Under the pieces are notes generated by a model. That model did not search any database. It saw nothing but the letters and a program-made list of their open reading frames with translations, and was not told the DNA's origin. A stretch of DNA of 63,896 nucleotides, filler included, from Hausera hauseri (Eukaryota): assembly GCA_046269625.1 (NCBI GenBank). It is 11 parts of 11 records of this genome, joined end to end, with 100 filler letters (N's around TTAATTAATTAA, not from the genome) between each part and the next. Parts side by side here need not be neighbours in the genome. Positions count along the whole stretch, not along the records: positions 59,894 to 63,896 come from JBJURY010826861.1; 10 more parts are not named here. One strand, 5' to 3'. The stretch's first letter is position 1; each line of letters starts with the position of its first letter. Below are positions 28,992-63,896 of the stretch, one piece after another. The translations under genes and the position numbers were made by a program.

Positions 28992-29159
28992 GAGTGGCGA
29001 TCTCAAATGTGCCACTTGCCTCAACAAAGGAGCCACGATTACTGGGCCTCTGTAATAGGTTCAATCGCCTGCGTTACCTTTTATCCGAATTTGCTTGTAT
29101 ATTTCGAGGGATTACATCGAGTTGATAGTTGGTGCTACACCGAATGTCAACTATTCGGT

Positions 29160-31599: not shown

Positions 31600-32400
31600 A
31601 TAAGACTTTAATACAACAAAATTTTCACATGTTGTTTCTGATCTGAAACCATGCAGACACATGAGACACTGTTTACACCGTATTTGTTTTTGGATGAACT
31701 TATCATGCGCCATGTTCAACTGTCTGCCCAAATTTGCCACGACCACGTAATGAAAAATTTCCTCCTGCTCTAACAGCAACAAATTTACCAACTGTCCATT
31801 TGGGTTCCGACTTCGATAAATTATACACATAGGGATTCTTGTAAATGACTTCATCCGCGGTATTTCTTTTATTGTAATGTACTGGAAAACGTTAATTGAT
31901 GGCGTCGGATTACGCCGTTGAAAACTGGAATGGTTTTCAGTTTCATCGGCATGCAACATTCATAAAAGTGCAATTCGGAAAAATACTGCCAATACTGAAT
32001 TGAACGATTTTCATGATGTCTGTCTACTTCCTCATATTTCAATACAGCCATAATACTGTAAAAAAAACAATATTCGTCATCAGTATTTTATACATTCACT
32101 AACGCAAAAGACTGCTCTAGAGCTGCATGTGCCGGTATGAATCAACTCCTAGGCAAATAAGTTACATCACTCGACTTTGTTACAATAAAGCCGAGAGTTA
32201 CAATTTTTATAATTCGCCATGCACTACCTTTTTCGGTATAGTTGGCGATTTTATCATCGAAACTTTCGCATACATCGGAAATAAGATCGTCGGAATATGG
32301 TATACTCGATGTGACAGGTATTATTGTTTCCTGTTGCCTTGTACATTTTCAAATTCTGTTAGTGAATAATATTGCATTTTTTAGTGGTGTTGGAACCGGT
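31600..32400 (-). pseudogene. polB: Polinton pPolB N-terminal fragment, second copy
   Basis: LVNV*NTDDEYCFFYSIMAVL..IYRSRNPNGQLVNL..HYVVV.NL.R..CLMCLHGF is homologous to 23511-23924 (YRSKNPNGSVVNL..YYVAVPNLNR..CEKCLHGF). Confidence 0.8.
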
Positions 32401-33201: not shown

Positions 33202-34290
33202 ATGCACCCTCAAGATCTTCAACGAGAACTTTATGTACGAAACTTTATCTACAAAACTCCGAATTTCCCACGATTTCTTTTCTTTAATGATTCGGATGAA
33301 GAGATTCCCCCTCAACTTCGGATTACGTTGGCTAGCTATAAGAGAGTCCTTTACGCATGCGACGTCGGTCGTGTAGACGAACCAAATCGATTAAGTCCCA
33401 ACTTTCATTTTGTACCTAGGAAATCAACAAAACCTCGTTTTTCTATTTTACATATTTCTCATAAACTCCAACATATTCAAGATTTAAGGCATGTTATTCA
33501 CGTTGTAAGCATTGAATGTACCAAAGCCCTTAATTGGTATTACATTGACTCATCACCTGATCACTTAATTAACACAATTAATAATGCGGAGCTCCATTTA
33601 ACTTCTGACATTCATTTACTTATCTTTCCACCACACACAACAGCCGATCTCCAGATTAACCATCTATACGAAAGCTTTAATAAAATAGAAAACAATACTC
33701 TTATTTTCCTCGGTGGTAGATCTCCACACTTCGAAACAAATAGCTATGCATTTCCGTCGCCGTTTACACAGGAATTAAAATCATACATTTACTTCTCGGC
33801 ATATAAAAAATTCCTTTTGAAGCGGGTTCCATTTTACCGATTTCACAATGGCGATACGTGTGTGCTCGTGTTGGACCCGCAAAATATTAGAGTTGTTTCT
33901 CTACGGAGGCTGTATAACAAAAAAGATTAAACGAAATATTTGGGAACCGTTTCAGACATAATATCAAACTACAATTACCGGTTAGATCTTTTAAAAGAAA
34001 CAGCAATCCTCTTAACATCGATTAACCACATCGATATACTACACTACCCGGTTTACATTATATCACCGCCATTCCACCTATACCTTTATATTAATAATAA
34101 CCTAATGAAAACCGTAAATGTCACACAAGGTATGGAGACATTACACTCATACGCTCGCATTTATAATACAACCGCCTACACTGATTTCTACCTGACTCAC
34201 AACGGTTTCATTTTAATAACCTCCCACACATCATGGTCTCATATTGCCATCTATGTATACACGTCAATCCTAGAATCCGCGGCGGTATGA
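33202..34290 (+). pseudogene. ORF0 upstream of gag, ~360 codons with one in-frame stop, unknown function
   Basis: ORFs 33202-33930 and 33940-34290 share a frame. The C-terminus (LYINNN..DFYLTHNG..YTS) recurs at 13235-13453 and, less clearly, at 53145-53400. Confidence 0.7.
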
Positions 34291-35330
34291 TCTCCCCACC
34301 AGCTAGTGACACCACCTATAACGTGACCACAAAACCCAAATCCATTCTCTACTACCCCAAATCAAACCACCCATCTACTTCAACCGATACCAATTCTTCT
34401 CACAAAAATCCTATCAGCACTACACCACATTGCACTAAATACTTTATAGACAATGAGAAGTCTAGCAAAACCTGGCTCAACTTCCATCAACTCTGGTTAC
34501 AGTCCAACGGTATCACAGACTCGTTATCCAAAGCATATAATATACTTTATCTTCTACCAAACTCTATAAATACCTCAATACATAACTTAATGGACATTTT
34601 TCAACACTCTGACCCTTATACCCAATTGTTTAAGGCTGTGTTAAAACTGACAGAACCACCAATTGACTCTATAATTCATCGCTTCTTTAACGAAAACACA
34701 ATGGGGACACAAAAACCTAGCGATTTCCTACGCACCTCGTTGGCTCACTTACGTACTTTAGGCGTCACCAAGGAACACAATCCGGATCTACTTCGAAGAT
34801 ATTTCCTTAATGCCTTACCCATTCAAATTAGGGCTTTACTTACCGTTGTTGAAGATTTTACAGCCTTAGACAAACTGGCTGAATTGGCAGATAAATCACA
34901 CGGTCTTACAAATCCAATTACAACCCATCATATCAGCCGCTATTAGGACCGATGACAATCAACAACATACTTTTATTGAGCACCAATTGAATCAATTACG
35001 TGCCGAAAATGCGGCACCACAACACACAATCAACACCATCAACAATAAACTGAACGAAATTTCATTAACTCGACGTGAGGGTTTCATACGTGACCGTAAC
35101 CGTTCAGTATCTCGTGGTCGTTCACATTCACCTGGCCGATCACTGATTTGCTATTACCACGGTAAGTTTGATAGTAACGCACAAAAATGCCACCTAGGGT
35201 GCAAATTTTATGATCAAAGATACCATACGGACAACGTCATTTGCATATACCATGCAAAATTCAGACAATGCACGCAAATGCATTCCAGGTTGCACGTTTG
35301 AAAACAAACCCGCCATGCAAATGACGAACG
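34287..35330 (+). pseudogene. gag: Gag with two CHCC zinc knuckles
   Basis: QKPSDFLR..LLRRYFLNALPIQIRALL..LDKLAELADK; CYYHGKFDSNAQKCHLGC and CIYHAKF/DNARKCIPGC. Confidence 0.9.
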
Positions 35331-35459
35331 CAAAACTTTCGTTTCTAACAGTCGCCCAGGTTCCCCGTTTTCAAAAAACTAACTTCGCCGCCAGAGTTTT
35401 CGGCAAGCACTGGCGAAGGCCACTCTTCACTTCCTAATAGCCGGAAAATTTCTTTATCC

Positions 35460-38400
35460 GTGTTCACATTAAAAGACTCCACCATCGCACCGACACCTCA
35501 ACACATAGATTTTCTTATCAATTCAGGCGCAGCGATTTCTTTACTACCGCTCACCTTTCCAACTCAACACACTTCATCCAAAATTAAACCTTTATTTACA
35601 GCTTCCGGACAACCGCTACATGTTTCTGGTACATGTAGGCTTTCTTTTATCCTTCCGAAATTTACTCAAACGTTCCGTTGTAAACGTCCAAACAGCCATT
35701 TTAGGATCCGATTTTCTTTCTCACTATAACGTCCTTGTCGATTGCAAACAACGCTGCTTAACAAGCGGTCGTAATAAGGAGCAATTCGATCACGAAGATA
35801 CAATTTCGGCTGTCGTACGGGTGAATGCAACTCAAAAGCCGATATTAAAAAGTCATTGAACAGACATTTTCCTTACAACCATAGCACCTTGTTTTATAAA
35901 TCACAAAAGAACAATGTCACTGCCGATTGGGGTTTGCACATTGACGAAAGTGATTCTGTTACCACTGCCATTTCATTAGATAAAACCACCAGCTACAGTA
36001 CTATCTTCAATGCTACCATCCTGCATCGAATACCACTTCATTCTCTATCAACAAATAACGCCCGAATTACTACTGCTACTAATACAACCAAAGTTACCTG
36101 TAAGACCTCCTCGCGCCCAACAAACTTTTCACAATTACCTGAAAGTCTGCAGCAATTCATCCACGTATCTTGTTCTAAAACTATTCAAAAATATAGGTAT
36201 TTTACACCAGCAAATACCACTTTTCACCACACTATGACACAACATCAAAGACCTATCCGCCAAAAAGTGCGTCCATTATCTCCTCGTCGTAGACAGGCAG
36301 TTGAAGACGAATTTCTAGAACTAGAACGTTCCCGAATTGTACATCGCTCCAAATCCCCATGGTCGTTACCACTGCATGTCGTGCAAAAGAAGAACGAAAC
36401 TTTTCGACCATGTGGTGATTATCATCAGTTGAACACTTTGACAGTAATGGATGCATACCCGTTGCCACTCATTAAAGATATCTTACACCGTCTCCACTCA
36501 ACTGCCATTTATTCTACCATCGATTTATCCAAAGCCTACCATCAAATTCCTGTGGCACCTGAGGATATCGAAAAAACAGCGGTCACTACTCCTTTTGGCC
36601 TATACAAATATCTGTACATGACTTTTGGCTTACGAAATGCTGCGCAGACTTTTCAACGCCACATCGATACTATCCTTTCCGATTTTCCATATGCTCATCC
36701 CTATATCGATGACATATTAATTGTTTCTTCCTCAACCAAACAACACAAAGAACACCTCAGATCAATCTTTCAACGCTTATACCATCAAAACCTGCAGATT
36801 AATTTTGCCAAATGTCCCCTTTTCCAGAAACGTATACATTTTTTGGTCACGTTATTTCTACCGAATGTCACTGGCCTCAGTCCGACCGAGTTGAAGCCTT
36901 AAAAAATGTACAGCTGCCTCGTACAACAACAGAAATGAGGAGTTTCTTGGGCACTTTGCACTTCGTGCACAAGTATGTGCCATACGGCTCAGAACTTACT
37001 GCACCATTTGCTCGCCTCAGTAGTGGGAAAAAACACCAACCAATACTATGGACTCCTAAACTTGTAAACAAATTCGAAAAGCTAAGAGAAGGTTTAAAAA
37101 CTGTCGATATATTAGCTTTTCCCAAGCATGATGCACAACTGATCCTCACTACAGACGCTTCTACCACCGCTGTGGGCGCCGTACTTCATCTAATCTATAA
37201 GGGTGAGAACCAGCCTTTGGAATTTTTTTCACGCAAGTTAATACCTCCCGAAACTAGATACTCCACGTTCGACCGAGAATTACTAGCGATAGTTCTTGCT
37301 TTAGAACACTTTTCACATTTACTCACTGCTCGACGTTTCACCATACAAACCGATCACAAACCTTTAATCAACGTCATGATCATGAAACACCCATCGTCTA
37401 GACAGGAAAGTCAAATTTCATGCCTGTCGACGTTCAATTTCGAGATCAAACATATTAACGGTGTAAACAACTTAGTCGCTGATTTTCTTTCAAGATCCGT
37501 TAGCTCCATCAATTTTAAACCTATATTAACATAAGATCAGCTGCAAGAAAATCAACCACCTTTAGACATGATTAAGTCTTTCCTATCTTACAACATCATT
37601 GACGGCGTAGCTTTCGACACTTCCAAACCAGGCCATTCCGTAATAATTCTCGCATCACCTTTACAACGGCAAGCGTTTAACAACGTACATTTACTACATC
37701 ATCCTGGTGCTAAGGCAACCTTTCGCTTACTCCACCGGCAGGTACTATGGCCGACAATGCGTTCCGATGTACAAGCATGGGTTAAGGAGTGCGCGGCTTG
37801 CCAGAAATTTAAAATTACCAAACATTTAAAATCAGCACTATATCACTTCCCTTGCACATCACGTTTCGAGTCCGTACATATAGATATCGTTGGCCCTCTT
37901 CCTCTTGACAACGGTCACCAGTTCATTTTAACCATGATGGATCGTTCATCACGACGGCCTAAAGCCGTCCTACTACAGAGCACCAATACGGACACGATAG
38001 CCGACGTTTTTATACTCACGTGGATCAGCAGATTTGGATCCCCTAAATTCATTATTACGGACCAAGGCACACAGTTTGAGTCCAATCTGTTTAAATCTCT
38101 CTTTAGCCGATGAGGAATCAGTCACATCCACACGTCACCGTATCACACTCAATCGAGTGGTCTTTTGAAGAGATTCCACAGAACACTATAAACGTCATTG
38201 AGGATCCTCTCAGAATCTAATAGCAGTTGAACTACTCTCATTCCGCTTGTTCTTCTGGGTTGGAGTAATACGCCTTCTACCTCTACAGGTTATTCAACTA
38301 CCGAAGCCATTTTCGGAACACCTGTACGTTCATTGTTTGAATTAACAGCCTTAGAAGATACACCGACAGACGAAGCTGTCCGATCAGCACAAAACCATTT

Positions 38401-39566: not shown

Positions 39567-40037
39567 TTACTCTGATAAGACTCCGAGAACAGAATGAGTC
39601 ATAGAAAATGCAGAAACATCACGCAGATAAAAGCGTATAAAAGAGCAAGGCGTAGACCACGCCGCTGCTGAACAGATGTCACTGACCGTCATCCCACCGT
39701 GCAGCGCTGTGGAGGACGCGATGGCCCGCGTGGAATGTGCACGCAGGATTTGTGGGGGTTCTGCCCCAGTGGCTCTGTGAGCCTCTGAGATGCCCTCACA
39801 CAACCAATGAGAGAGGCGCTGAGAGGACAGAGCGCGTCCAACCGAGCTGTCTCTGTAGTGAACAAACAGGCGCTGAGAATGACGTAGAGCGGCTGTGCGA
39901 GTCACATAACATGCGAGCGCACGAACAGGGCACAATAGATGAGACGTGGCCTCTTCCTCTGACGCGTGTGGAGGAAGATGAAACCCATTTAGCGTGATAG
40001 TCCTTGATTTGAAGGAACTATTTATGCATTTGAGCAT
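39567..40037 (-). pseudogene. DIRS tyrosine recombinase, C-terminal half
   Basis: LCPVRAL..LFVHY..LSHW..RAHSTR..ICSAAAWST..F.RFY (H-x-x-R, W and catalytic Y). Confidence 0.9.
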
Positions 40038-41056
40038 GTAGGCCGGTTGGGCCTACATGCCATCATGGTCATCCAGGCAGCCGTGCGTGACAGGCAGACT
40101 GTGGATGCGGCACAGAGATTGAGGATTGCGTCTGCAGCTTTGCACAGCGAGCTTTTCGCTTCCTCAGGCAGGTCAGTCTCCTCCAGCCTTTTAGAGATGA
40201 GGAATGCGAGGAGGGCAATGTTGTTGCTGGCCGCAGCAGCCTGGACAGAGCACTGATGAACTCTGTTCGAGAGCTGCATGATGGTCTGGTCATGCCTCCC
40301 AGGTGGGACTGGTTTCTGATCCATCCTGGCGGCTTTCACCCCGAACACCTCCATGAGGCCCTGCTACAGGGGGGGCACTGATGGGAAACCCTGTTCAGTG
40401 AAACCCGCCACCTTCGTGATAGAAGCGAAAGTCGAATCTGGGGCTTTCGCTTTGGCGGGCGCTGCCACAGCCTCGTTCCAGTATGACGTCACCGCTGGAA
40501 AATGAGGCCAGATTGGGTCAGGGCACCGGGCCGACATGGAGCCGAATCTTCCCGCCAGATCATCGAATCTCGGCGGGGGAGGAGGCGGAACGGGCAGGCC
40601 CTTCGTGTCTGCCGCTTCATGGATGATGGCGGGCAGTTCCTGGAGAAGGGCGTCCAATGCTGGGAGCGTGGTGGCCGCTGACCTCGGGGGACGGAGGGGC
40701 GCAGAGCATACGTTTTGACACTCCTCGTCCAACACCACGCTCTCGAGGAGGGATGGAGCAGCGCTTCGGGTGCTGCCTCCATCCCCGTGGTCAGGTGAGC
40801 CATTCGGCTCAACCCTCGCATTAAAAACAGAGATGGCTTCGTCCAGCGGCATCTCGTCTCGCACCTGCCATTCGTCGCTTTCGATAGCCTTGAACAAGGC
40901 TGCTCGGTGCTCCCGCTCTCCGGCGGGCAGGAGGCGGCAAAGGCGACAGGGGTTGTCGAGTTCAGCATGTTGGGAACCCAAGCATCCCTCACAGATCTGG
41001 TGCTGGTCGAAGCTCCGGATAAGGGCGACTTTGCACGCTGGACAGGTTCTGGCCAT
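40022..41056 (-). pseudogene. DIRS1 Gag-like ORF1
   Basis: MARTCPACK..DQHQICEGCLGSQHAE..CRLC, the Cys/His N-terminus typical of vertebrate DIRS1 ORF1; one internal stop at ~40364. Confidence 0.8.
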
Positions 41057-41264
41057 TCTTCCTTCTTGTTTCGAGTAGGTCTTCAGTTGACGGCTGAATG
41101 ATAAAGGGAGACGATTTTCCCGTGTCGGGAGATTATAAAGACACGAGGCGGGCCCACACAGTAGGTGGGCGTGGACTATAGGTTTTTCAGTGGGCGCACT
41201 GGCGCGCAAGGGATTATCCAGTAAGCAAAGCTGTCTAAAGGGCGTAGCTCATATGAAATAGAAC

Positions 41265-43818: not shown

Positions 43819-44258
43819 NNNNNNNNNNNNNNNNNNNNNNNNNNNNNNNNNNNNNNNNNNNNTTAATTAATTAANNNNNNNNNNNNNNNNNNNNNNNNNN
43901 NNNNNNNNNNNNNNNNNNACAGGAATTATCTTGAACAATCGTGCTCGCCTGATTACAATTTTGCTTCACAGAATGAATTCGCACTTCACTCTTTTGTTTT
44001 CTTCTCCCTCTTCTGTCATTTCTATCGCTATATATACATCTATGGCTAATGAATTTTCTGAATTTGTGTGTTTTAAATTTCTTTATTTTTCGTTTCTTCG
44101 ATTTATTCGATTTACGAATTGATAATTTTCACATTTGTTGATTTTTCTCCGTTGATTAGATAACTGCATGCACTAATTATTATGTAATTGCTAATTTACA
44201 ATTATTTGCTGAATTCTACTGACTAATTTCGGTTTCGGTTTCTATTTTCACTTTACAT

Positions 44259-44690
44259 TTATACAATATCTTTTGCTTTTCTGCAACATTTCTCGTACTT
44301 TTGTAACATTTTTTCGCCCTGAACGGCATTCTCGGATGTGCCATTTGCATCAGATGAGGTGCCGCGTAAACAGTTCATTCGTCCGCGTAAGTCGGCTTCC
44401 GAATCCGATTCATCTCGTGGTGATCGCGGATCAAAGTGGTATGACGTATTGGGTTTTGGGCGCAATATTTCCACTATCTTCTTACTTTCCTCATTAGAAA
44501 AGTATATCAGTCTTGTCGCTTCGGTCCTACATACTGGGCAGGTCGTTTTCGCATTTTTCAGGGTCGACGTTTCTAAACAGTACCGGCAGTATTTATGGGT
44601 GCAATCCTCATTGTCTAATACCACAAATCCTTGATACAGATTTGCATCACAAACGGGACATTCTACATTTTTGCCTCCATCAATGTCTAC
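44259..44690 (-). CDS. C3HC4 RING finger domain at the end of the accessory region
   Basis: ECPVCDANLYQGFVVLDNEDCTHKYCRYCLETSTLKNAKTTCPVCR; all eight ligands present. Confidence 0.85.
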   Translation of the reverse strand, partial: VDIDGGKNVECPVCDANLYQGFVVLDNEDCTHKYCRYCLETSTLKNAKTTCPVCRTEATRLIYFSNEESKKIVEILRPKPNTSYHFDPRSPRDESDSEADLRGRMNCLRGTSSDANGTSENAVQGEKMLQKYEKCCRKAKDIV

Positions 44691-45677
44691 TAGGTTTTCG
44701 TCAACTTCTATTCGTTCGAATACTAGTCCTTTTTTATCTTAACATAGATATCCGCATAGCCGTTTTTGTTTGGGGTGTATAGAATATTTTTTAGGGTCAT
44801 CTGACACAGTGGCCAACCTCCATTCAACGATTTCTTGTTTATCTAAGTCGGGTATTCCGGTTTTCTTGTACTGCCTTTTAAATTTTACTCGGACTTGGGT
44901 ATCTACTGGGATGGTTAGTCTATTGGTACTATTTTTCGACTGGAATATTGGGGCTAAGTATCGGCCAATGGTTACATCGTCTCGGCCATATCCATTTCCA
45001 CTTACGATTCTTCGAGGAACAGTAGATACGTAGAATATGGCTAACTTGATATTTCCTTTACTGTAATACTCGGACATGACGAGCATTTTGGTATATTATT
45101 TTACTTGACCAAATTCTGTGACTGCAGTTTGGTTGTTTTCTTCCCAGTTCTTCCGAAGAACATTTACTTCTGTTTTGGATGGCTTTGGGCTGGTAACTGT
45201 TATTCTGGGTTCGCCGGAATTTTCGGCTTCTTGCCGTTTCGGCCTTTCTTTAGATGTGTTTACTTCATCATTCGATGTGGAGCTGCTAGTAGACGGTTTC
45301 ATGTCTCCGAGTTGGCTCTTACTGGTTTTACTCCTCTTCTTACTAATATATTGCAAGAAGGAAGTTTTCATCTTTTGTCCTCTTGGAATTTCTCCGGTAT
45401 TCGATTTTAGTCTTTTTATCTTCTCCTGAGGAGTCAATCCAATCTCGATTCGGTTTTGACTAGTCGATGGTTTTTGCTAGTTGTTGAATGTTTTGGCCGG
45501 GCTGTTGCGGACGGTTACTTGGAAATTATTGTGTCCTTGTGGTTCGATTTGTCGGTATGCCGGATACTCGCTAGACCCTTTTCGAAATTTTTGCATCAAG
45601 ATTTTTGGGTTGCTGTCAGATATTAAATTTTGTGTCGGGTTTCTGGGTTTCCATTCGTGTTCCCATCGTAGTGATGT

Positions 45678-46751
45678 CTAGATATCCCTTATTAGTTTCG
45701 CGCGTTGACTTGTTGTCACTAATTTAGGAAATCTTAATTGTTTGCCGTTCATGGCTTCGAGCATCATTTTAAACTGTGATTCTCTTGACGCTGAGGGAAG
45801 TAGACATCCTCTTTTCCTCATTAGAGTACTTTCTATCTGACTTACAACAATTGGATTGCGACTATATATTCTTGCCGAATTTCCAATTTCTCTAGCATAT
45901 CGTGCACTCTGAATCCGGTTACGACGAAACCGTATAGCCAATGACTTTTGTCTTCTCGGATTTCCAGGAAATCTTTTCCTTTTTCAAGTTGTGGTTTGGT
46001 AATTCCGGAAACATCTGGAAATGCGTCTTTCACTCTTGTTCTGGGGCGATTATTTTGTCTATGATTTCCTCTTCATTTATATTTCGGATAGACACTTCGA
46101 TCGGAGTGTACCATCTGTTATCCTTCTCTCCATAATTTAAAGGCTAAAAATCGGGTATTTTGGCCGTCGGGAACTAGTCTGAAAGATTCTCCGTTTCGTT
46201 CTATGTCGTTTTCGGAAGGTTTGTGCATAAATAATATAGGTGGTAATGGGCTCATCATCTCTGTCCGCAAGGTAAATTCAAACGTGAGCTTTATTGGAAG
46301 TTCTGCGATCCTGAATTCCAAGGTATCGTCCATAAGACTGAAGCAGCACAATTTATATGTACTAAACTTCCACCGTTGCCCTCTTCTGGTACTTCAGGAT
46401 TGTACTACGATCCTGTATTGGATTTCTCTATCTGCTACATGGATGCATAACTGCTGATGCGTTGGTTCATATGGGATCATGTCCTTCAAAGAGTATGTTC
46501 GTACATCTTTTGGATTTCACACTGCGTATAGTTTGAGTAGTCGATTGTCCTCCAAACCACATTTCAGCCCATTCGGTTTTCTGCTTTCCCGCTTGATTTC
46601 CACATAATTCTTCTTTCTTAGAGTTTCTCCGATTTGGAGGTGTAGGCTTTTAGAGTTTGGCTTTAGCACTGTTACATGTTGTTTCAGGAAATCGTCAATA
46701 TCGTTTTCGGAGCTGGTAGTTGAATTCTTCGCCTTTTCGGCCACATTTACT
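45678..46751 (-). pseudogene. Accessory ORF: unknown N-terminal domain + DEDDh-fold pseudo-exonuclease (45680-46160)
   Basis: TPIEVSIRNINEEEIIDKIIAP / VKDAFPDVSGITKPQLEKGKDFLEIRE..WLYGFVVTGFRVHDMLEKL follows the REX1/REX4 pattern (VS..N.....D..V.P..V.D....SGI...L....F.E....L.G..LVG). Confidence 0.75.
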
Positions 46752-46849
46752 CTGCGGAAGTAAAAATAAAAGTCAATCCTAAGACAGATCATCGTTTTGA
46801 AACAAAACATTTTCTCTGTCTGATGATAGAATAACCCGATCTGTAGTTG

Positions 46850-48200
46850 TCAGGTTATGCTATCAAAAAGCTCGTCTCTGTGCCCTATTTGTTTTTTATC
46901 CCTCCGTTGATTTTTGCACCGATTATCACAATTTTTGGAGACTAAGAAAATCGTCGTGATTAATATAACAAGAACGAAAATTGACAAACTGAATATGGCT
47001 ATTGTTGGTAGATTATCTGGCTTAAAAGTACTTTCTGTAGTAAGCGTTCTTGGAGTACTAGTGCCTTTATATGGCATTTCGTGTACTTTATCGTGTAGCG
47101 TTTGTATTGTCAAGATTTTAGGCCTCTTATTTCTGGCTGTAATTTGAATTACGCAATTATTTTGTGATCGTAGGGATTTGCATTCGATTTCCTAACTATT
47201 CTTCCTTAAGATTACAATTTCGTTGGTATGCAAAGTGCGACATTCAATTTTAATTTCGTAATCCAATTTTTCATCAATATAAAATACAATTGTATTACGC
47301 CGTACCAAAATTTTAACAGGTATGTTTTCCAAATCTCTCTCGGACATTTTACTCCAAGTGATAATAATAGTAGTACAAGTTGTACTGGGAATGGTAGACG
47401 GTTTTCTCGTAGTTGTTGGGAGGGAAATCTGTCACATTCCTACTTTTGGATGATATCCTATTAAATAGATACTCGGTTCGTTTGGGCAGGTATTATACAG
47501 ATCCAGTTGTAATTGGTAGCTGTATCCCAACGGCAATCTAAAGCACGTAGTGAGCCGTCGCTGTGCAATATAACAATATTCTGGGATAAAAGTTAAAGCA
47601 TTTAATGTTATGAATCGTATAGAGATTTGTCTGTCTTCCGGTAATTCTATTTTGGTTGTGGCTCAAATACGTTGGTTTTTGAAGTCTTTTGAGATTCCGA
47701 TGATGTTGAAATCTAAGAGTCTTTTGAGTGGGTCGGTGTGTCGGACTATCTTGTCCGTCTTGGTTTGGTTCGCATCGTTACGCTAATGCATTCTGATTTC
47801 AAATTCAATAATTATGTAGTCTTGGGCTCCAGGCAAATTGTAATAGAACATTTGGAACTTATATTTATAGATTCGTCCGAATTCCAAATCGCAACATTTA
47901 TGATCGGCTCCATACGAGAAATCACATATCTTCGTTCCAGAACTAGTTTGATCCACCAATATTATTTGAAATATTACGTGGTTCTTAACAGATTCGCTTG
48001 CCTTAAACCAGGCGCAAGGTTTCGGCCAGTCCATGTCGTAGACTCTAAGTGACTGCAAGTTTTGCATATCTTTACGTTTTTCCGCATATTGTTGTTTTTC
48101 GGTTAGTGTTATTCATTCTATTTTCGGTATATACGAAGCAATTAATGAGAAAGCGAGGATTACCTGTGCATAGGATATGGGTCTGGCTACTATTGTCGAT
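46850..48200 (-). pseudogene. Env-position type I membrane protein with FN3-like Cys repeats
   Basis: Signal-like VILAFSLIASYI; CDFSYGADHKCCDLEFGRIYKYKF and CYIAQRRLTTCFRLPLGYSYQLQL; Thr-rich stalk; TM IAIFSLSIFVLVILITTIFLV; basic tail. Confidence 0.7.
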
Positions 48201-48249
48201 GTCTTCTTGCTTTTCTTTGTTGGATTTATACTTTCTTTACTAGAACACA

Positions 48250-49275
48250 GGTTGTAGCGCTTGTTTTGTCTTATTTCCGTTCTAACTACTCTTTGGATGG
48301 ACAAGACCTCTTCCTTACTGTTTTTATTAATATAAACTGTAGTTGGTGTGGTCCGAATAACCTCGTACTGTCCTCTACCTGTGCGAGTCAGTTTTAGGAA
48401 TGTGCCTTTTTTCGCGACCGGGTAATGTATGTAGACCCAATTCCGTATTCTAGATCATGTGGTTTGGCTTTCTTATCATACTGCTCCTTAAATTGTTCTT
48501 GATACTCTTTGGATAATTCTTTGGCTATTTCCCAACACTTGCGTAGTCTCATCTGTAACACTTCCACAAAATTTTGTTTTAAATCCTCTGTGTTCACTGT
48601 GTACGGTATCATTTCTAAATCTGTGGGCAGCACAGCTTCCCTGCCATTCATCATGAAAAACGGGGTGAATCCTGTTGTTGGATGTGGTGCAGTGTTTATG
48701 GCGAATTGTGTGCCTTCTACAAATTCGTCACAATCCTTTTGGCTTTCGCCACTACGGTTGACAAGATTCGCACCACTGTCGCATTCATTCGTTCAACATT
48801 TCCGTTACATTAAGGGTGATAGGCTGTCGTGGTTAGTCGTTCGATTTCGAATATTTTGGTAATTTTTTCGAAAAGTTTACTCGTAAAGTTTCTTCCTTGG
48901 TCTGTTAAAATTTGTTCAGGAGGTCCATATTTACGGATAATTTTCCTCACTACTGCTTCTTCCAGAGTTTCGGCTTTTTGGTCCATTAATGCTATCCGTT
49001 TGACGAAATGAGTTAGACGATCTACACACGTTAGAATGTACTTGTTATTTTTGTGAGTGGTAGGTAATGGTCCTACAATATCCATGGACATTGCTTGCAT
49101 TGGTCTATCCGGTACGTCTATTGGCTTAAGTTTGACAATACAGTTTTTCACTTTTCTTTGTTTCGTTGCGCAAACTTCGCGCACATTTACCTAATTTTTC
49201 ATGTCGATGTATATACTTCACAAATAATATTTATTTAGTATTTTCTCTAAGGTTTTCTTTCATGACATGTGTCCG
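48250..49275 (-). pseudogene. pol: Gypsy integrase (zinc-finger end, DDE core, GPY/F-like region)
   Basis: GHMS..CAT, SMDIVGPLP, VDRLT, LTDQGRNFTS, TTAYHP, TGFTPFFMMNGREAVLPTD, GQYEV. Confidence 0.93.
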
Positions 49276-49862: not shown

Positions 49863-52800
49863 GAAGTAGATGATGAAAGTGAAGAAAGCAGTGGAAGCGA
49901 AACATGCGATGAAAATGAAGCAAGCAATGGAAATGCAATAGGAGATGAAGGAAGTAAAGACGATTGATTGTGAAACAAGAATGACCGCTGCGACGAAGCA
50001 AAATCATTGAAGAAGAAAGCATGTTTTAGATTGGGAATGTGGACATTGTAAGGTTTGTCCTTGCATAATGTAGTGGCCGTGTGAGAAAGGAGATTGAGAA
50101 GCTTGTAACGGCCGCCGTACTGAGGTCAAAAACCGGAAGACGACTGATCTTTTAGACATAAAAACTTGGCGGAATACAAATTTTCTGGAATGACTATATT
50201 AGTGACATGTGCACGAAAGATTTATGGTCGGCTTGGACGACAAATGAACGAGAAGTAGGGAAATGCTTGATATGTTTTACTGCCAGAACTGTGGCTAGTA
50301 ATTCACAGTCAAAAGTGGAGTACCACTGTTCTGGTTGCTTAAATTTGCGCGATAAGAATTCTAACGGTTCATGAATTCCATTGTATATTAGATGAAGAAC
50401 TGCATCTGTTGTAGTAGTAGAGGCGTCAGTTGACAGTACTAGCTTAGTGTGAAAATTGAAAAAGTCTAGTATTTCGATGGCTTTCAATTTGTCTTTGAGA
50501 TGGTCAAAATCATTGACGAAGTCGGCTGTCCAGTGGAGAGGCATTTTTTCTTCCTAGCACTCAGTGAAGCAAACGGTGCACTTAGAGCCGAGCAATACGG
50601 TACGTACTTGTGTACAAAATGCAACGTGCCAAGGAAGCTAAGCATATCGGAACTAGTGCGTGGAAGCTGGTAATTCTTTAGGTCGACCAGTCTTCAAGCT
50701 GTGGTGAATGTCCATCAGGCGAGGTTATATGGCCCAGGAATTTAATGCGTTTTTGGAAGAATGAGCATTTCTCATAGATTATTTGTAGGTTACATTGATG
50801 TAAGCGATGGAATACGACTAGTAAATGTTCAGTATGCTGTTGTAGCGAAGAAGAGGCTATTAGGATATCATCAATCTATGTAATGCAGAAGTCAAAACCA
50901 GCAAAAATGGTATGAATATGGCACTGAAACGTCTGAGACGCATTTCAAAAACCAAAGGCCATAAACGCGTATTAAAATAAATCAAATGGAGTGGTAACAG
51001 CCGTTTTGGTAATGTTCTCTGGATTAATAGATATCTGGTGATACACTTCATGCACGTCCGAGTAGGAAAAAATTGTGGATCCATGGAGGCTATGAAAAAT
51101 ATTGTTTATTAGCGACAAAGGATATGCGTTCATGATTGTTAATGCATTTCATTGACGGTATACGCCACAAGATCTAATTGTCCCATCTTTCTTGGTAACT
51201 ATATGACGAGGCAAGGGCCAAGGAGATTTTAAGAGACGGACGATACCTGCTTGTTCCAAGACTTGAAATTTAGATTTTGCAGCTTTTCGCCGTCGAGAAG
51301 GTTGTAAGGTTGTTAAAATGGCTTGAGGGATGTATCCTTTCTTAAAGTGCGAAAACATGATTCGGTAATGCAGGATTTTAGAGTAGCATCTAGAGATGAA
51401 AATGGCGGAGACATGCTATCGGAAGAGAAAATCGCTGTGATTGGCGAAAAACGACTGACATCGCCACCATCGACATTCAGTTTTACCACTTGCTTTAAAA
51501 CAGATTTAAATTTTTGGGTATTGTAGAAGAAATGTATGAATTATCGAAAACACTGGTATTGAAATTAGCAGGTGGATGCAACAAAGTTGGACTGTCTGAT
51601 ACACGTTTGTCAGCTTCTGTGACAAAATTCCTGAGCAGCAGACAGCCATACATACAGTCGGCCAGCAGATGTTGTGCGGCCAGGACGTCTAAGCAGACTA
51701 TAGGCGAATTAATATTAGCGATCTAAAATTTAAAGACACACTTGTCTGGTACGTTAGAGAAGGTTAAAGCCAGTTCTGTGGTGCGTGTAATGCGAAGGGG
51801 TTGTACACTGGCTGTGAAGAGTGAAGGAGGAGAAAAATTAGTAGAAGTAGAAAAAAAGAAGTAGCAGAAATGATAAGGAAGCTCCTGAGTCGATAAGAAA
51901 GTCGATATGTAAAGAGTTATTAAAAAAGAGCACATCTTTCAACAGAAAGACTGCAGAGGCTGTGCTAAGACGACCAGTAGATAGTGAGATGTTACCTATA
52001 CCAGAATGTGCCGTGGCATCTGGTGGCGTTCAGTTTTTTCAGCATTGTGGAGAAAAGAAGAGGAAGGAAAAGAAGAAAAAGAACTGAAGTTATTTTCGGG
52101 CTTGCGACTAAAATTTAGTGTGATACATGCAAATAAAGCTGTCCACTGCATAGCGTTCGTTGTAAAATCGACAACTTCAGAGACACATCTTTGCATCTCT
52201 ACAAAATTTATTATGATGAAAACAAACCATTTGTCTACCCGAAGATTTGGATCTACATAAGTGTTTGGAAGAACTGTGATTTTGCGATACACTGAACTCA
52301 CTTCGTTGAAGCACAGTTAAATTATTTAGTTGGGTCGTAACGGCCGAAATGGATTGTGTAGAATTTGATATTGGATGTGCATTGTTTGCAGTTGTTGTAC
52401 CAATGCAGCCATATCTTCGTGTGGCGATGGTGTGTGTGTTGTTATGGGTAGTGAGTTATTTGTTTGGAGAATCTCAAAATTCTTATTAGCCAGTACTGCA
52501 AGTGTTTCAATCGCCGTCCAGTCATCGACGACAATAAGGAGTACCCTGATGGATATGCGCAAGGAGGAGAGAAAATGCCGTCGAAGAATGTCTGCATTAT
52601 TTGTTGGATTTACTCCTAAAGCAGTTAATTGTGAAATGGCTGTTTGTAGAAATTCAGAAGGCTTTTGAGTGTTCATAGCGTGTTTGTTGAAATATTTTTT
52701 GGATTGTATTATCGATCGACGGATCGGTAATATGGAGAACGGCTTCATAAAGTGTGTGATAAGGAGTAGATGTGAAGATATCTGAGACATTAATGATCTG

Positions 52801-53900
52801 TTGTTTGATGTTTGCAGGAAAAAGAATTAGTAGACTGTTGGCTCTAAGAAAGCAGTCAACAATGTGACTGGCTTTGAGTCATTGCAGGTGAAACTGTAGT
52901 CAGGTTCGGCTGGAATGGCTTTTGTCCAAGAATAATTCGACACTAGGAAGGTTCGAACAAACATGCGACACAGAGTTTGTAAGGTGAACGACATGTACAT
53001 TTTGTGGATTTTTCGTCAGAAACGAAAGAGATGGGGTCCGACCCACCCCGAATACGGAAGTGAATTGTGATGTTGATGATAGGATATTTGGAAAGTACGA
53101 AAGATGGTAAATAGTCGGAAGGGTGTAAGATAAATCCATAGAGCCTAAGGTAAAGTCGGAAATGTGAAATAAGACAAAGATGCGTAAAGGGTGTGGGCAG
53201 TGTTTATGTTTGTTACATGCATTGTAATGCTGTGTAGATTGTTTTTAAAAATAAAAAGGAAAGTGGTTGTGGAGTAATGCCGGGAAAACAGTGGAGTGCG
53301 AAAGTCGCAGACGTACCCAGGTACCCATCGAGGCAAAACATGAGTGTATGATCGTTGACAACAAGCGGTCGCATTTGATTGGCAAAGCACCCAGCAATGT
53401 TGTTTGCTGACAAATGCGTAATAATGCGGTTTTGAAATGTCTAGGTGTAATATTTGCGCAATGCGTAGTCATGATTTTAATTCGAAAATGAGAAATTTAA
53501 ATGCGCGTTATAATAACGCAAGAGGTGCCGTGTATTGGACTGAATGTAACAGACAAATTGCATAGTACGCTTGGAAATTTGTTGGTTTTTAATTTGGAGC
53601 CTGCTCGCACCAGTTTACAATTTATGCATGTGTTCGATGATTGATTTTGAGGTTTGCGTATTTGGATGAGCGACGTAACTCGGCGTTTAGTGTGTGTTTT
53701 GGAGAAATTCGGATGGTTGTGTAATTTGACCGAGATTCAATTTTAGCCAGTGGGGAAAAGTCTGGTAGATCACACCAGACGTAAGCCAGGTTTCCATGCA
53801 TGAAATGTTGCGCAGCATATGGGAATCCAATAAAAATGGTAAAAATAAGGCATGCTGTGGAGGTGAGTGATAATTTTATCTACGGTTGTAATATATAGAT
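49863..53900 (-). mobile_element. Ty3/Gypsy CsRN1-like copy 3 (ORF0-gag-PR-RT-RH; integrase core deleted), strongly decayed
   Basis: Gag QKPSEFL..ILRRHFL and CFHHNKF..CMYHTKF; KSPWPLP..KKDGTIRSCG.YR; LSTDAS, YSTFDCELLA, ADHK. RNase H joins directly to the integrase C-terminal tail. Confidence 0.88.
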
Positions 53901-56376: not shown

Positions 56377-57466
56377 GTCTACTGTGGCACATGTCACATC
56401 AATGAAATCAGAATGAATGACGGACACAGCAATTCGATGATCGATATTGTTATTGTTCAATGAACCACAATTTGTGTTGTATGACGTCTCCATCGTATTT
56501 GTTAATTCTTGGATGACTTTCATTTTGTCTGACTCTTTTTTGGATACTGGTTGCTCCTGTTCTTCTTCATCACTCTTAGATAATTTGATCGACAATTTCC
56601 GACGAAGAAAGAGTGGCAAATGAACAACAGCGGTATCTGTGATTATACGTAAGAATAATCGATGATGAACTGTGTCGAGCGTGATAGGATTGTCAACAAG
56701 CAAATTATGAAATTGTTTTAAAATTCAGAACTTTGCCGAACTTTTAGATATTCTAACTTTTGAAAAGAAGATTTATTTAAAAAAGTGAGATTTCATTACG
56801 ACATAAAATTAAAAGCATTATCCGACTATGAGGAAAAGTACTGATGACAATTTATTCGAATCTATTTACCAAAAGTCATCATCATTAAGATGCAGTTATT
56901 TTACATTATCTGACGTCACCATCAAAGACATTATTGCCGATTATGATAACTGCCTCAGTTATTACGTACAGAATTTCATCACAATTACCGATTTATCACG
57001 ACTATTCTGCTGTATTATATGTCAAATTAACCAACTGAAAAATTCCAATAAAGCACATTTATTACTCGACAAAACTGTTACATTCATGCACCAGAATCAA
57101 CTACAGATAGATTGCATTTCTGCAGTCTCTGCTAAAAGTGTCGTCTATAACAAATGTCCGCTTGTTGACAATCCTATCACACTTGACACAGTTCATCATC
57201 GATTATTCCTACGAATAATCACAGATACCGCTGTTGTTCATTTGCCACTCTTTCTTCGTCGGAAATTGTTGATCAAATTATCTAAGAGGAGCAACCAGTA
57301 TCCAAAAGAGTCAGACAAAATGAAAGTCATCTAAGAATTAACAAATACGATGGAGACGTCATGCAACACAAATTGTGGTTCATTGAATTATAAATATATC
57401 GATCATCGAATTGCTGTGGCCGTAATTCAATCTGATGTCATTGATATGACATGTGCCACAGAAGAC
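56377..57466. repeat. Inverted duplication, arms 56377-56701 and 57160-57466
   Basis: LVDNPITLDTVHHRLFLRIITDTAVVHLPLFLRRKL..IDHRIAV..TCAT is encoded on both strands. Confidence 0.92.
56828..57466 (+). pseudogene. Unknown ORF, frameshifted and fused to mariner
   Basis: 168-aa ORF plus continuation 57350 onward; no family recognised. Confidence 0.4.
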
Positions 57467-58567
57467 TTATACCATAAGGTGGAATACAGAAGTGTCATCA
57501 AATTTCTCGTGCTAAAAGATTTGAACAATCAAGAAATAATCAAAGAATTAAAGGAAGTGTATAAAAATGAATGTTCAGCTATTAGAAATATCTACAAGTG
57601 GATTTCTAACTTCAAACATGGTGTCCAATCAGTGTTTGCTGATCAGAGTCCAGGTCGTCCTGACGAAATTTGTGCTGAAAAAGATGAGTTATTGGAAAAA
57701 GTTATCAAATCAGAGAGACGAATTACAATAATAGAGCTCAACAAGGCTAAATGTTAGCAAGGGTACTCTCAATAACATGATGAAGCGTTTAGGCATACGG
57801 AAATTATCATCCAGATTTGTTTTCCACTTTTTAACTAACGAGATGTGCCAAAATCGTCTACAATGCTGTCAAACCAACCTGACCAAATTCGAACATGAAG
57901 GTGATCAATTTTTGACAAGCATAGTGACAGAGGATAAAACACCATTGTCACTTTATGTGCCAGAAAATAAGAGAGTCAAGTGAATGGAAATGTGCAGGTG
58001 AGACTGACAGCCGAAAGTCGAGGTCTTCTACAAGCCACAGAAAGGTCTTAATGTTGACTATATTTTGGAACAACAAAGGGATTCTGCTTATGGATTTTAC
58101 TGATTCAGCAACAAAAATTAATTCCGATTATTGCATAAATCTATTGCAAGAAGTCCACAAGAAACAAAGGTAGCCTTACAACTTGCAGCTGTATTTGCTT
58201 CAAGATAATGCTCAAATTCACACGAGTTTTCACCCTCCTTCCTCATCTTCCATATAGCCCCGATCTCACCCCTAGCGACTTTTTTCTCTCTATAATAATT
58301 TGAAAAAATATCTCAGAGGAAAAGATTTCCACTCAAAAGCTGATCTGAAACAAGAAGTTCAAGGTTTTTTCCCAATCCCAGTCACCACAATTCTTCCAAA
58401 GTGCCTTCAATCTACAGGCGATCTGCTGGAAAAAGTGCGTCGAAGCAGAAGGTTCATATATAGAAAAATAAGAACCTTCATGTCATGTCTAGCATTTTAT
58501 TAAAATATGGTTTTGATATTCTTACTTTAGACAGGTTTATGCACGCATTTAATGGGCTCACTACGTA
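57467..58567 (+). mobile_element. Mariner (DD34D) transposase pseudogene with right end
   Basis: EYRSVIKFL, PGRP, LGIRKLSSRFV.H.L, IVTEDKT, KVLMLTIFW, QDNA..H, YSPDLTPSDF, KKYLRGKDF; terminates ..CTACG|TA. Confidence 0.92.
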
Positions 58568-59893: not shown

Positions 59894-60487
59894 TTGGAAG
59901 ACATCGCCATCCGGGTCCAACGCTACCTGACGGCAGCCCGTTTAATTCTTAAATAACTTAGAGCCAAGTACAACCTTAGTGAGTACAAGGAATTACAGGC
60001 CCACAGCCTACTAGACACCGACATATAGATATAAGATAATGCTAGGTAGGATTCTAGTATCTGTCCCACCCACATATACCCAAGTTATTTGTTCACCCAT
60101 TAATTTGTATAAAGTGATAATTAAAAGTCTCTCCCGAATTGAATTAGTGGGAACTGAACATATATACCATTTCGAGAATAGGTAATTTTAGAAGGAAAAT
60201 AAAACAAAATTCCAATATACATAGTAAAATACGAAAGAATTTAAAAATTACACAAGAGTAGACTAAACAGTATTAAATTAATTCTAGTTATTTATCGTCA
60301 TATCGTCATAACTGCCATTTATCGCACAAGTTTATTCGTTGATACTGATTTATCACACAAGTTTATTCGTTGATTAGAATTCTAGATCATTTGTAACACT
60401 AATTAAGATGATCAACACCATTTGTAATATAACATTAAGATGACCAACACGATTCAACAATCAACACGATTCAACACCTCCCTCCTC
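59894..60487 (-). repeat. PPT (60477-60487) and 3' LTR (60476 downward; distal end not defined)
   Basis: Minus strand CTGAGGACAGCGCCATCTGAGGAGGGAGG|TGTTGAATCG, a typical Gypsy TGAGGAC..PPT|TG junction. Confidence 0.8.
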
Positions 60488-60520: not shown

Positions 60521-61826
60521 TTAGGGTGCCGTTAGAATATTGGTAATTCGCTGAATGAATGTTGAGCCAGGACCCTTTATCCTTGATTTTATTATTAAGA
60601 GTAATAGTTTCTTTTTTGGTTTAGTTCTCTTTATGGGTTTCTTTGTTAAGTCGATTACGGTTGGTTCTGGTAAACTGTCATTGAACGTGTTCGACACTGA
60701 TAATAAAGGAGCTTGATTCATAATTTCGTCGGTAAGAATTAATCGATTTGGTGAGTCTTGGATGTCCATTGGCGAAGCGGTTGATCCTGTTAATGCGGAT
60801 TCTTCTGTTGTTATGGGAAATTCTTTTATACTTTTATAGATTTTCAACATAGTTGCGGCTTTTTCGTTTGTCCGTTGGGGATATTCGCTGTTGTTATATT
60901 TCACTAAGATATGGGCTTGTGTTAGGTGCTTTTGTGTATTTATTTCTTTGTAATAAAGGAGATCTCTAACTCCCAGTACAGCATTAATATTGAATAGGTA
61001 GAAATGCTGGTTATTTTCATAAACATTCATTCTTACTATCACTTTTTCCGATTAGCTGTTGTCGGATTTTTTTTCAGCATCATATTTATCAACTTGACCG
61101 ATTATATCAGCTTCCTTTAAACCGGTAATCCGGCAGTTATAGTTGTCGATGCGGTTTCGGGGACAGATAAACGGATTATACAAGATATTTCCATCTAGGT
61201 CTATGATAGTTATTACGACGGGTGTCTGCTCTTTTGATCGAATAGGCTTCATAAGATAGGCGCTATTTATGGCCATAATAATAATTTCTTCCTTTTGTAT
61301 CTGCGGTGACCTGGCAAATGATACACTCTGTTCCAATCGTAATCTATCGGGTAGTGCTATCGGGTAATTAGCAGGTTTAGGATATTCCAAATGAGGGAAT
61401 GTTTCCCTTCGAATCACTTCTACATAAATCACTGGTGTAGGTCTACTATGAGGCCGTAGTATTATCGCAGCATTTTTATAAAAGCGTTGGTCCAGACGGA
61501 CTGTCGTAAAAGAAACGAGTTCTACTGTGTCGATCATCCCGTTTAGATGAGTTCGACTTTTTATTTGGACGGTTTCTTTAACAGCTTATATATAGACTGA
61601 TGTAGTTTGGTTTGAGAGGTCTATGATGTCAGGCAATTTGTGGAGGCAACTGGTAACTAAATATTTAGACCACTTCGTTGAGTGACTAGGTGGCCTTTTA
61701 AGTTATTTGGAATAAAGGAACATTTTCAATAAAATATGTAATCTTTTTGAACGGTTGCATTAAGATTAGTAATGATGTTGAAATAAAATGATTTCTGTCT
61801 ATCGGCTATTTCGGATCCTTCTTGGT
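60521..61826 (-). pseudogene. Accessory ORF with DEDDh-fold pseudo-exonuclease and VIDLT/basic tail
   Basis: ITIIDLDGNILYNPFICPRNRIDNYNCRITGLKEADI..KIRQQLIGK/VIV..GVRDL..NEKAATMLKIYK; tail EPTVIDLTKKPIKRTKPKKK. Confidence 0.78.
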
Positions 61827-61914: not shown

Positions 61915-63260
61915 TTATAAATATTTTGTGTAGGTCGCGAGGAGTTTGGCGGCCTTATCTTTTATATGTGTGCAGATATATAATGCAACGTTTGTTAACG
62001 GTTGAATTTGCCGTTTAGAATTTGATAGCTTTTCAGCCTGGGAAGACGCATCCATATCATTAGTAAAATCGTTTTGGGAACCCTCTCTTAATAATTTTAA
62101 TTGTTGTGTTAATTTCTGGGTCTTGCGCATTTTACGTCTTACTTTGGAACGATAAATTGTTATCGGTAATAATATGGTTATTGAAACTAAAGGGATACCT
62201 AATGTGATAAACAACCAGAAATATTTGTCAGAAGTTTTTTTTGAATTTGCATGGTAGTTGTTTTTATAGCTTCATTCGTAACAATTGTCCGTAATTTCAA
62301 CGTCTTTTTCATTTTTGTAATTTCTTGTAAAAACTGTCCGTCTTCGTCTAGCTCTGTTATAATGATCCTATAATTAGTATCAGCTTTTAAGATAATACAA
62401 GCCGATGTTGGTTCGTCTTGGGTCAACACTCCTTCACTAACCATTCTTTTGTGAAGAAAACATTCAAATTTTATATTGGTATTTTTTAAATTTGATATGG
62501 TGGTAGTAAGAGAGTGTGGTGTTAATTGTATAGTTATATCTAATTTCTTAATAATTTTTATAGCTTCGGTCGGCTTCTCTATCGGTAATTTTGTGATAGA
62601 AATCCTTGGAATGATTATAGTTACTGGTGTGGCCCATTATATTATTTCTGCTCCATCTGGCTATGTTGACCACGCATAAACATTAGTCGTTGTTTGGTAA
62701 TAAATTTGGAATGATCTATTAAATGAAAAGGACAACAAAGATGTGGTTTTTGGTAATGTGGTTTGCATTTTATAATATCGGTTTTGTTTCGGATCCAACA
62801 TTCTATGGTGTGATATTTAGTTATTGGAATTTCTGTCTCAGCCGTAACGCAAAGTCAATTTCTCATGACTTTTGTATAAAATGAAACAAGAAAATATAGT
62901 TGGTGGAAGTAATGAGTCGTACCGGGATATGAAAAATGTTTTCTATGTGACTGACCTCTTCTTCCAGTTGCGTATTGGATCCTATGGGATACTCTGAACG
63001 TAAGCCCACAACACGTATGAGTTGAATGGTTATAATGCAAGTCACAATATTCCGGTGTTGCTTTGTACACAAAAGGTATTTTCGATATGAATATATGTAT
63101 ATATTCACCGTACGTTAGATTTCGATTGGCCGTAATTTTTATGCACGGGTATTGTCCAACCTGGACGGCTTTATATTGTACGGTAGGACTCTGAGCCGAT
63201 ACACAGGTTTCTAAGCTTAGCATCATAAGTGTTGCTACTAGAAATAGGTTAGGATTTTTA
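61915..63260 (-). pseudogene. Env-position type I membrane protein, in frame with integrase
   Basis: LFLVATLMMLSLETCVSA|QSP signal; YPCIKI..EYCDLHYNHSTHTCCGLTF; CIILKADTNYRIII (FN3 Tyr-corner-like); TM WLFITLGIPLVSITILLPITIY followed by RSKVRRK. Confidence 0.72.
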
Positions 63261-63269
63261 TTTCTTATC

Positions 63270-63630
63270 TTTGATTCCATCGGCGCGGGCTTCCATCTGT
63301 TTACATGTACTTTTAATGGGTCCATTTTATTTCTTTTACTTTTATTCAAATAGATTTTAGGTTCATCCACTTTTTGGACCATATATAGACCTTTATATGG
63401 TCTATCCAATTTTGGCGTTTTACCCTTTTTACTTGAAGGCGTATGTAACATAACCTTGTCTCCAGGTTTAAAACCATGAGATTTCGCTCTTTCAATATAT
63501 CTATATTTATACTCCTTTTTACATATTTTTATATGTCGAAAAGCCAGGTTCCATACTTGTCCAAATTTTTCTTCTATTAATTTTTTATATTCCATATCCT
63601 TTAGATGAGACACTGGAATTTTGAATTCTA
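63270..63630 (-). pseudogene. pol: Gypsy integrase C-terminal GPY/F region
   Basis: FKPGDKVML..KLDRPYKGLYMV..KVHVNRWKP. Confidence 0.85.
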
Positions 63631-63896
63631 TATCATGTTGAATTAACAGTATTAAAATATACAAGAGAATGGATAATCCAGAACGGAAAAGTTGAAAAAT
63701 TATTGAAATTTTGTTTTTCAGAGTTTTAGAACCATTGCCTGTGATATTAGACGTTACACCATTCTAATGTCCCGTTTCCCAGTTTTCGAATAATATATAA
63801 GACATATGTGTGCAGTGATTATTCATGTGTGTAGAGACTGTGCAAAGTTGATAAAATGCGTTTTTGAGTCACATTTAACAGATTTTTCAATTTAGT

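Follow-up and report, generated by a model that had tools for sequence, protein, structure and literature searches.

As far as the available text of published surveys goes, the envelope genes of Ty3/gypsy elements derive from viral fusogens, F or gB. Errantiviruses carry a gene for a signal peptide, an ectodomain and a transmembrane (TM) segment directly after pol of an LTR element, and the portions of the survey by Chary and Hayashi at hand describe its product as Env of the F type or the HSV gB type only (PMC13524379); the same portions give the order GAG-ENV-POL for Platyhelminthes errantiviruses. The Tor elements of Oikopleura have an atypical TM glycoprotein after pol, made from a spliced or internally started RNA; this Env is furin-cleaved, and the available part of its description reports no FN3 fold (PMC4402516). 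According to excerpts of PMC9094657, Env of Atlas virus and other BEL/Pao elements (Belpaoviridae) lies in frame with Pol in one polyprotein, and the class II fusogen of Atlas virus holds, as such fusogens do, one domain of FN3 topology, domain III of GC. In Burro elements, env encodes a fusion glycoprotein in frame within the polyprotein, between gag and pol (PMC6431247, available sections). The capture of varied ORF3 cargo is already known: the non-Env ORF3 of bdelloid LTR elements (PMC5408684) and the Burro/GYPSM1 elements (PMC6431247) hold, at the env slot or close to it, captured sequences such as DEDD exonucleases, RING-type motifs and small TM proteins, and no FN3 membrane protein is found in the accessible portions of these two papers. 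A non-Env fusogen has also been described (PMC11952523 and PMC13486581, in excerpt). Full-text literature searches, with subscription journals, Repbase and supplements (including the errantivirus tables) outside their scope, retrieved no FN3 protein in an env slot; the word "fibronectin" occurs 0 times in the available main text of the errantivirus survey (PMC13524379) and of a giant-transposon review, and the accessible part of PMC6338049 holds nothing further on this subject.

The window analyzed here, the whole stretch of 63,896 nucleotides, consists of 11 contigs of 4–9 kb joined by artificial N-TTAATTAATTAA-N linkers, and neighboring contigs are not truly adjacent. It is AT-rich and packed with decayed mobile elements. 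The feature under study, designated copy 1, occupies the minus strand of the last contig (59894–63896). It represents the 3' end of an LTR retrotransposon of the Ty3/gypsy type, now decayed, whose env slot holds a gene for a membrane protein. Its parts follow in the order integrase tail, signal peptide, Cys repeats, one TM helix, basic tail, accessory ORF, polypurine tract (PPT), and LTR. Two sister elements, copy 2 and copy 3, are present elsewhere in the window, and all three copies are decayed. The contigs begin inside the integrase, so that the 5' part of the element lies outside the view.

The gene has the errantivirus-type layout of signal, ectodomain and C-terminal TM directly after pol (judged by hydropathy), but with three predicted FN3 domains and no furin site. 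It resembles the Tor gene as an atypical TM glycoprotein gene after pol, and the spliced RNA or internal promoter of Tor is a model for the use of the Met at 63280; unlike Tor Env, its product has no furin site. The open frame of copy 1 recalls the single Pol-Env polyprotein of Atlas virus, whereas the integrase is of the gypsy type and the FN3 domains are three in tandem. As in bdelloid and Burro/GYPSM1 elements, the slot holds apparent captured cargo, here a membrane protein predicted to be of the FN3 type, and the gene stands behind the integrase rather than between gag and pol as in Burro.

The assignment to Ty3/gypsy (Metaviridae) is supported at both ends of the visible region. The integrase at the 3' end of pol shows an rve core in copy 2 and, in copies 1 and 2, a C-terminal box which we take to be of the GPY/F type; a PPT followed by an LTR starting with TG is found in copy 1, with one LTR only in the contig. 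The C-terminal part of the copy 1 integrase (63283–63763, minus strand), whose core is cut by the contig end, carries the box at about 63391–63383; this tail alone gave no Pfam match. The broken integrase core and C-terminal part of copy 2 (48394–49190, minus strand) matched Pfam rve with an E-value of 8.3e-16 on 48813–49190. The integrase tails of the two copies are 34% identical over 44 aa. The PPT of copy 1 (60487–60477) is followed by TG at 60476 and the start of the 3' LTR (59894–60487 with the PPT, minus strand), which contains AATAAA at 60367 and 60336; since the 5' LTR is outside the contig, the LTR is inferred from PPT and TG. Alignment of contigs of run X1, which may be the source sample, to copy 1 yielded 2,556 matching contigs covering 30 of 30 bins: 161 at ≥99% identity, 394 at 95–99%, 1,094 at 90–95%, and 907 below 90%. 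Because so many contigs match, most of them below 95% identity, the element is a multi-copy family.

The minus-strand frame of copy 1 is open from 63763 to the stop at 62855–62857 (302 codons) and, as the sequence-only reading had stated, passes from the GPY/F region into a signal-like stretch and a Cys-containing ectodomain. The predicted signal peptide (63194–63280, minus strand) is opened by an in-frame Met at 63280, 5 codons past the integrase end, and has a basic n-region, a hydrophobic h-region (hydropathy of 2.05 over 13 residues) and a V-x-A end; signal and TM calls were made by hydropathy. It is followed by domain 1, a four-Cys FN3-type repeat (62969–63190, minus strand). Against a repeat HMM built without copy 1, domain 1 scored an E-value of 6e-5 in a search of the window in six frames, with the next unrelated match at 0.96; a second profile gave 26.4 bits compared to 9.0 for the best shuffle (0 of 100 shuffles reached the score). 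On these profile scores, domain 1 is homologous to the repeats of the database protein P0006 and its relatives. The ORF at 62855–63664, which had been read as the env-position protein, does include the signal and domain 1, but the remainder of the gene lies in two other frames.

Domains 2 and 3 of copy 1 are probable and were assigned by position and Cys/Tyr spacing only. Domain 2 (62690–62880, minus strand) shows the C-x9-CC spacing and is broken by the stop at 62855–62857 and by a frameshift near 62720–62730; its profile score of 3.1 bits is at the chance level, being reached by 58 of 100 shuffles. The Thr-rich linker and domain 3 occupy 62236–62689 (minus strand), with stops at 62663 and 62639 in the linker and an L-x5-Y motif in domain 3 (about 62553–62236). 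The similarity of domain 3 to the family profile was weak (E 0.034 in three frames) and that to domain 3 of P0006 marginal (z 2.4, reached by 16 of 500 shuffles). A single-sequence model of this domain had a pLDDT of 37.6 and yielded noise in structural search, and its best score in the Atlas language-model search, 0.76, was uninformative. Frameshifts occur near 62720–62730 and 62200–62270, placing domain 3 in the second frame, and the TM helix (62211–62155) with the basic cytoplasmic tail in the third (61915–62211 together, minus strand). With two frameshifts and the stops at 62857, 62663 and 62639, the copy 1 gene is decayed. The first of these stops looks copy-specific, since 17 sister contigs differ there. 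The proposed Thr-rich stalk, TM and basic tail were recovered in part: TM and tail are in place, but the principal Thr-rich segment separates domain 2 from domain 3, and a shorter one precedes the TM. The four motif strings quoted for the Cys repeat unit were all present, but the spacing of its final part is L-x5-Y instead of a loose L..Y.

Copy 2 spans 43919–49275 on the minus strand. Its env-slot gene (46853–48190, minus strand) encodes in one frame a signal, three FN3-type domains, a TM helix (46996–46940) and a tail; it contains five in-frame stops and has no Met ahead of the signal. Copy 3 is truncated, retaining domain 2 and the first half of domain 3 (29806–30316, minus strand; tblastn with P0006, E 7e-25; repeat HMM, E 7e-14). 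A phmmer search with copy 2, with X at the stops, over 1.84 billion representatives returned 2 proteins, P0006 and P0007, each from a single ENA record and known here as proteins alone, not placed in retroelements. P0006 is intact (479 aa) and 39% identical to copy 2 by phmmer (E 3e-79), or 36% in an alignment of 472 aa (E 1e-82); P0007 (189 aa) is 47% identical to copy 2. The order of parts in P0006 is signal, charged helix, domains 1 and 2, Thr-rich linker (residues ~281–310), domain 3, TM, and a short tail of about 30 residues. The charged helix is predicted to be long (residues 32–73); copy 2 has a shorter one and copy 1 none. Domains 1 and 2 of P0006 are sequence repeats (z 10.2; 0 of 500 shuffles), each with four Cys, and domain 1 has a C-x-W motif. 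Both database proteins end in Y-x-x-I, a pattern known as an endocytic motif; copy 2 has F-x-x-I, and the motif is absent from the tail of copy 1.

The Cys and Tyr motifs of the family are kept despite an overall identity of 36–47%. The differences between copies 2 and 3 numbered 49, 39 and 72 at codon positions 1, 2 and 3, respectively (72 of 160 at the third; excess p 0.0014). Two lineages with integrase tails only 34% alike have the gene in the same slot, and this shared slot together with the third-position bias supports retention of the gene. Further homologues were not found: the word-index search with P0006 returned only itself among 3,335 candidates and that with the copy 1 ORF none among 118, locus searches gave nothing in metagenome contigs or viral contigs, and no significant match came from direct BLAST of the ectodomains of copies 1 and 2. 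In the PDB, sequence searches from copy 2, from P0006 and from alignment A3 likewise gave no match, and no significant family for the ectodomain was obtained from Pfam, NCBIfam or PHROGs.

The fold was predicted with AlphaFold2 on P0006 from a four-row alignment (with P0007 and two unbroken copy 3 pieces). The model is of low confidence (mean pLDDT 47.9, mostly 50–70 within the three domains; pTM 0.25) and consists of three tandem all-beta domains with 6, 5, and 7 strands called in domains 1–3. The PDB matches listed by Foldseek for it (40 rows from ranks 1–50) contained FN3 domains, the best being fibronectin FN10-12 (E 5.5e-9), with further FN3 triplets from gp130, sDscam, contactin and Tie2. 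Pairwise, domain 3 superimposed on fibronectin FN6 with Z 8.5 (rmsd 2.1 over 77 residues) and domain 1 on the FN3 domain of MER with Z 7.0 (rmsd 2.6 over 89 residues). An FN3 domain is a seven-strand beta-sandwich of about 80–95 residues, and by strand calls and superposition the P0006 model, on which this comparison was made, agrees with it. The unbiased wide structural search also returned beta-sandwiches, with no chain reaching Z 8 and with YEATS, DUF3244 and a designed Ig tied with FN3; the matches listed from the viral library were FN3-annotated, tail and unnamed proteins. Language-model (Atlas) neighbors of the family protein fell in FN3 clusters at 0.84, which we regard as a lead only. 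An L-x5-Y motif, which we take to be the FN3 tyrosine corner before strand F, is present in all three domains of P0006 and in P0007 (7 of 10 segments tested); a pattern with L-x4-Y spacing had no match in three contigs. Against Pfam fn3 (PF00041), P0007 reached E 0.12 and 13 bits, below the cut-off of 25, and P0006 gave no match; the claim is of an FN3-type fold, not of Pfam fn3 membership.

On this evidence an FN3-type fold is very probable for the family and probable for copy 1 as a whole. The idea of an FN3-like protein in place of a recognizable fusogen is therefore well supported, through the intact P0006 and the homology of copy 1 domain 1. The low-confidence model has three beta-sandwiches, FN3 domains are its best matches, and fusogens are absent among the rows shown. 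Type I topology is likewise a prediction, from the hydrophobic segments at the N- and C-terminal ends. Fibronectin FN10-12, gp130 D4-6, sDscam FN1-3 and Tie2 FN1-3 likewise have three FN3-type domains in a row, which in several of these proteins lie next to the membrane. The present protein differs from cellular FN3 proteins in its extra Cys pairs in domains 1 and 2 and in being encoded by a retroelement, and because its identity to them is only 5–18%, no donor can be named.

F-type Env is recognized by a furin site followed by a hydrophobic fusion peptide, and this pair was not seen. R-x-K/R-R is absent from the scanned coding-frame pieces of copy 1 (62720–63193 and 62202–62729) and from P0007; the ectodomain of P0006 has neither R-x-x-R nor R-x-K/R-R, and its highest 19-residue hydropathy is 0.83. 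Copy 2 has a single R-x-K/R-R site, followed by Pro. The observation that no furin-site/fusion-peptide pair was seen held in the copy 1 pieces and in P0006. No fusogen appeared among the structural rows shown from the PDB, the viral library, the wide search and the re-alignment, although absence from hit lists is no exclusion. Three compact predicted domains, two of them repeats, do not fit the class II layout, which argues against a class II fusogen; with a low-confidence model, the case against a recognizable fusogen is strong, not final.

Whether the protein is made as part of Pol was considered from the junction with the integrase. The in-frame fusion described in the sequence-only reading holds for copy 1, but the signal is immediately preceded by a Met, and the record of P0006 gives a separate gene that starts from a Met of its own, at a place matching the Met of copy 1. 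The gap of 5 codons between the integrase end and the Met in copy 1 would be open by chance with a probability of 0.69. A similar junction had been noted at 48100–48300, and in copy 2 the frame indeed runs open from the GPY/F box to the signal, over about 30 codons (0.11 by chance alone, before allowing for frame), but this openness may be a product of decay: the nine upstream residues of P0006 score −8 against the integrase frame of copy 2 and +5 against a neighboring one, a fit which suggests it, weakly, as only nine residues are compared. Among the sister variants, of which 40 of 352 are listed (12 of 23 for indels), none of the five listed in 63190–63400 makes a stop, and eight of nine tested in 63100–63763 do not. 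A single listed variant, at 63559, alone would put a stop inside the integrase tail, adjacent changes being outside the listing. One sister contig skips 71 bases across the junction (63234–63306); defective subfamilies of the element are possible. In a word-index search of the copy 2 ectodomain against longer proteins, 0 of 1,463 candidates matched, which speaks weakly against a fused form. The polyprotein route, in which signal peptidase releases the protein from Pol, would in our estimate have slightly less than an even chance.

Our preferred reading, held tentatively, is that this single-pass membrane protein with three predicted FN3 domains directly behind the integrase may be the cell-attachment protein of the element, not its fusion protein. 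The signal peptide would take it into the ER, after translation from its own Met on a shorter RNA or as part of a Pol fusion that is then cleaved, and lineages may differ in this respect. From there it could reach the surface of the cell or of budding particles, be sorted through endosomes by the terminal Y-x-x-I, and bind a partner on neighboring cells. A different protein would have to carry out membrane fusion, with its gene either in the 5' part of the element, which is out of view, or in a co-resident element. Since FN3 domains have many functions, the fold is not specific to attachment. Paramyxoviruses and herpesviruses split entry between two proteins. An unlikely but more specific form of the attachment reading is entry split in the same way, with a host-derived FN3 adhesin binding the receptor for a fusogen upstream in the element, where the GAG-ENV-POL order reported from flatworms places env, or from a co-resident element. 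If true, it would add to the envelope-slot genes a third kind, drawn from the host adhesion or cytokine-receptor repertoire, not from a virus, and would be a candidate for the attachment partner that is missing for gB-type retroelement Envs. More generally, a conserved FN3-type env-slot protein would mean that retroelements can also recruit a cellular adhesion/receptor fold as a surface gene, and searches that start from known Env sequences would overlook elements of this kind. The protein is also a candidate for how elements choose their target cells, a question left open for gB-type Env in the available text of PMC13524379.

The same structural matches can be read differently. Cytokine and growth-factor receptor ectodomains (gp130, IL-12Rb1, IFNAR, IL-20R, TSLPR, Tie2) occupy many of the structural rows, and the four Cys in each of domains 1 and 2 and the C-x-W in domain 1 are typical of cytokine-receptor FN3 domains. 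The protein might then be a receptor mimic or decoy on the host cell, without a role in particles, which binds a ligand or signaling receptor and alters the fate or signaling of the carrier cell; the RING and nuclease-like accessory genes of these elements would suit such a role, and Burro elements have been proposed to meddle with host pathways (PMC6431247, accessible part). We consider this rather unlikely, as there is no WSxWS motif, by which class I cytokine receptors are recognized, identity to any receptor is 5–18% with scores tied with fibronectin, and the tail of P0006 is short, at about 30 residues. The position in the env slot, the predicted surface topology and the terminal tyrosine motif would also suit a protein that interferes with competing enveloped retroelements or viruses by occupying their receptor or lowering its level. 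To our knowledge, the known interference genes derive from the Env of the virus that they block, and no likeness of this protein to a fusogen was detected, which leaves interference a slim chance.

That all three window copies are broken agrees with a captured host FN3 gene carried as a passenger without function for the element. The same slot in two deeply diverged lineages, the third-position bias between copies 2 and 3 and the Cys and Tyr motifs kept at 36–47% identity make this quite improbable. A fusogen that is highly diverged or of a new kind would agree with the env position and the type I topology; Atlas GC domain III has FN3 topology (PMC9094657, available part), the small non-Env fusogen sORF2 of mdg1-group elements demonstrates that non-canonical ones exist (PMC11952523, available part), and the predicted helix at residues 32–73 of P0006 is unaccounted for. 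Three compact domains, with 1 and 2 as repeats (z 10.2), leave no room for class II domains I and II, however; neither a furin site nor a hydrophobic loop is present, and size and layout are unlike those of FAST-like proteins. A fusogen of this kind is improbable, and the attachment reading, tentative as it is, is the one that we retain.

Downstream of the env slot, copy 1 has an accessory ORF (60521–61585, minus strand) before the PPT, with one internal stop at 61052–61054. Its best PDB sequence match was ISG20 (E 0.11), a weak likeness to ISG20-type DEDDh exonucleases that is a lead only; by eye, its first catalytic motif seems altered. This ORF was ruled out as a fusogen since no hydrophobic segment of TM strength is present in its frame. 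The corresponding region of copy 2 contains an ORF piece with a C3HC4 RING finger (44259–44738, minus strand; Pfam zf-C3HC4_2, E 1.3e-5; 25.3 bits, slightly below the curated cut-off of 27), and a C3HC4 RING finger likewise lies at the end of the downstream accessory region of copy 3 (28933–29295, minus strand).

A satellite of 68-base units, with ~96 copies detected, lies within positions 1–9452 of the window. Another gypsy-type family is represented by three decayed gag-pol copies at 13302–15550 (plus strand), 34185–38113 (plus strand) and 52326–52826 (minus strand). Fragments at 22599–24089 and 31483–31959 (minus strand) resemble protein-primed DNA polymerase genes of the Polinton/Maverick type. 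ORFs at 39567–41248 (minus strand) have a higher GC content than the rest of the window and, in our view, resemble the genes for the tyrosine recombinase and the Gag-like protein of a DIRS-type element. A nested inverted duplication at 56377–57466 has arms of 163 and 129 bases that are 93–96% complementary, and beside it lies a decayed transposase (~57335–58400), which we take to be mariner-like.
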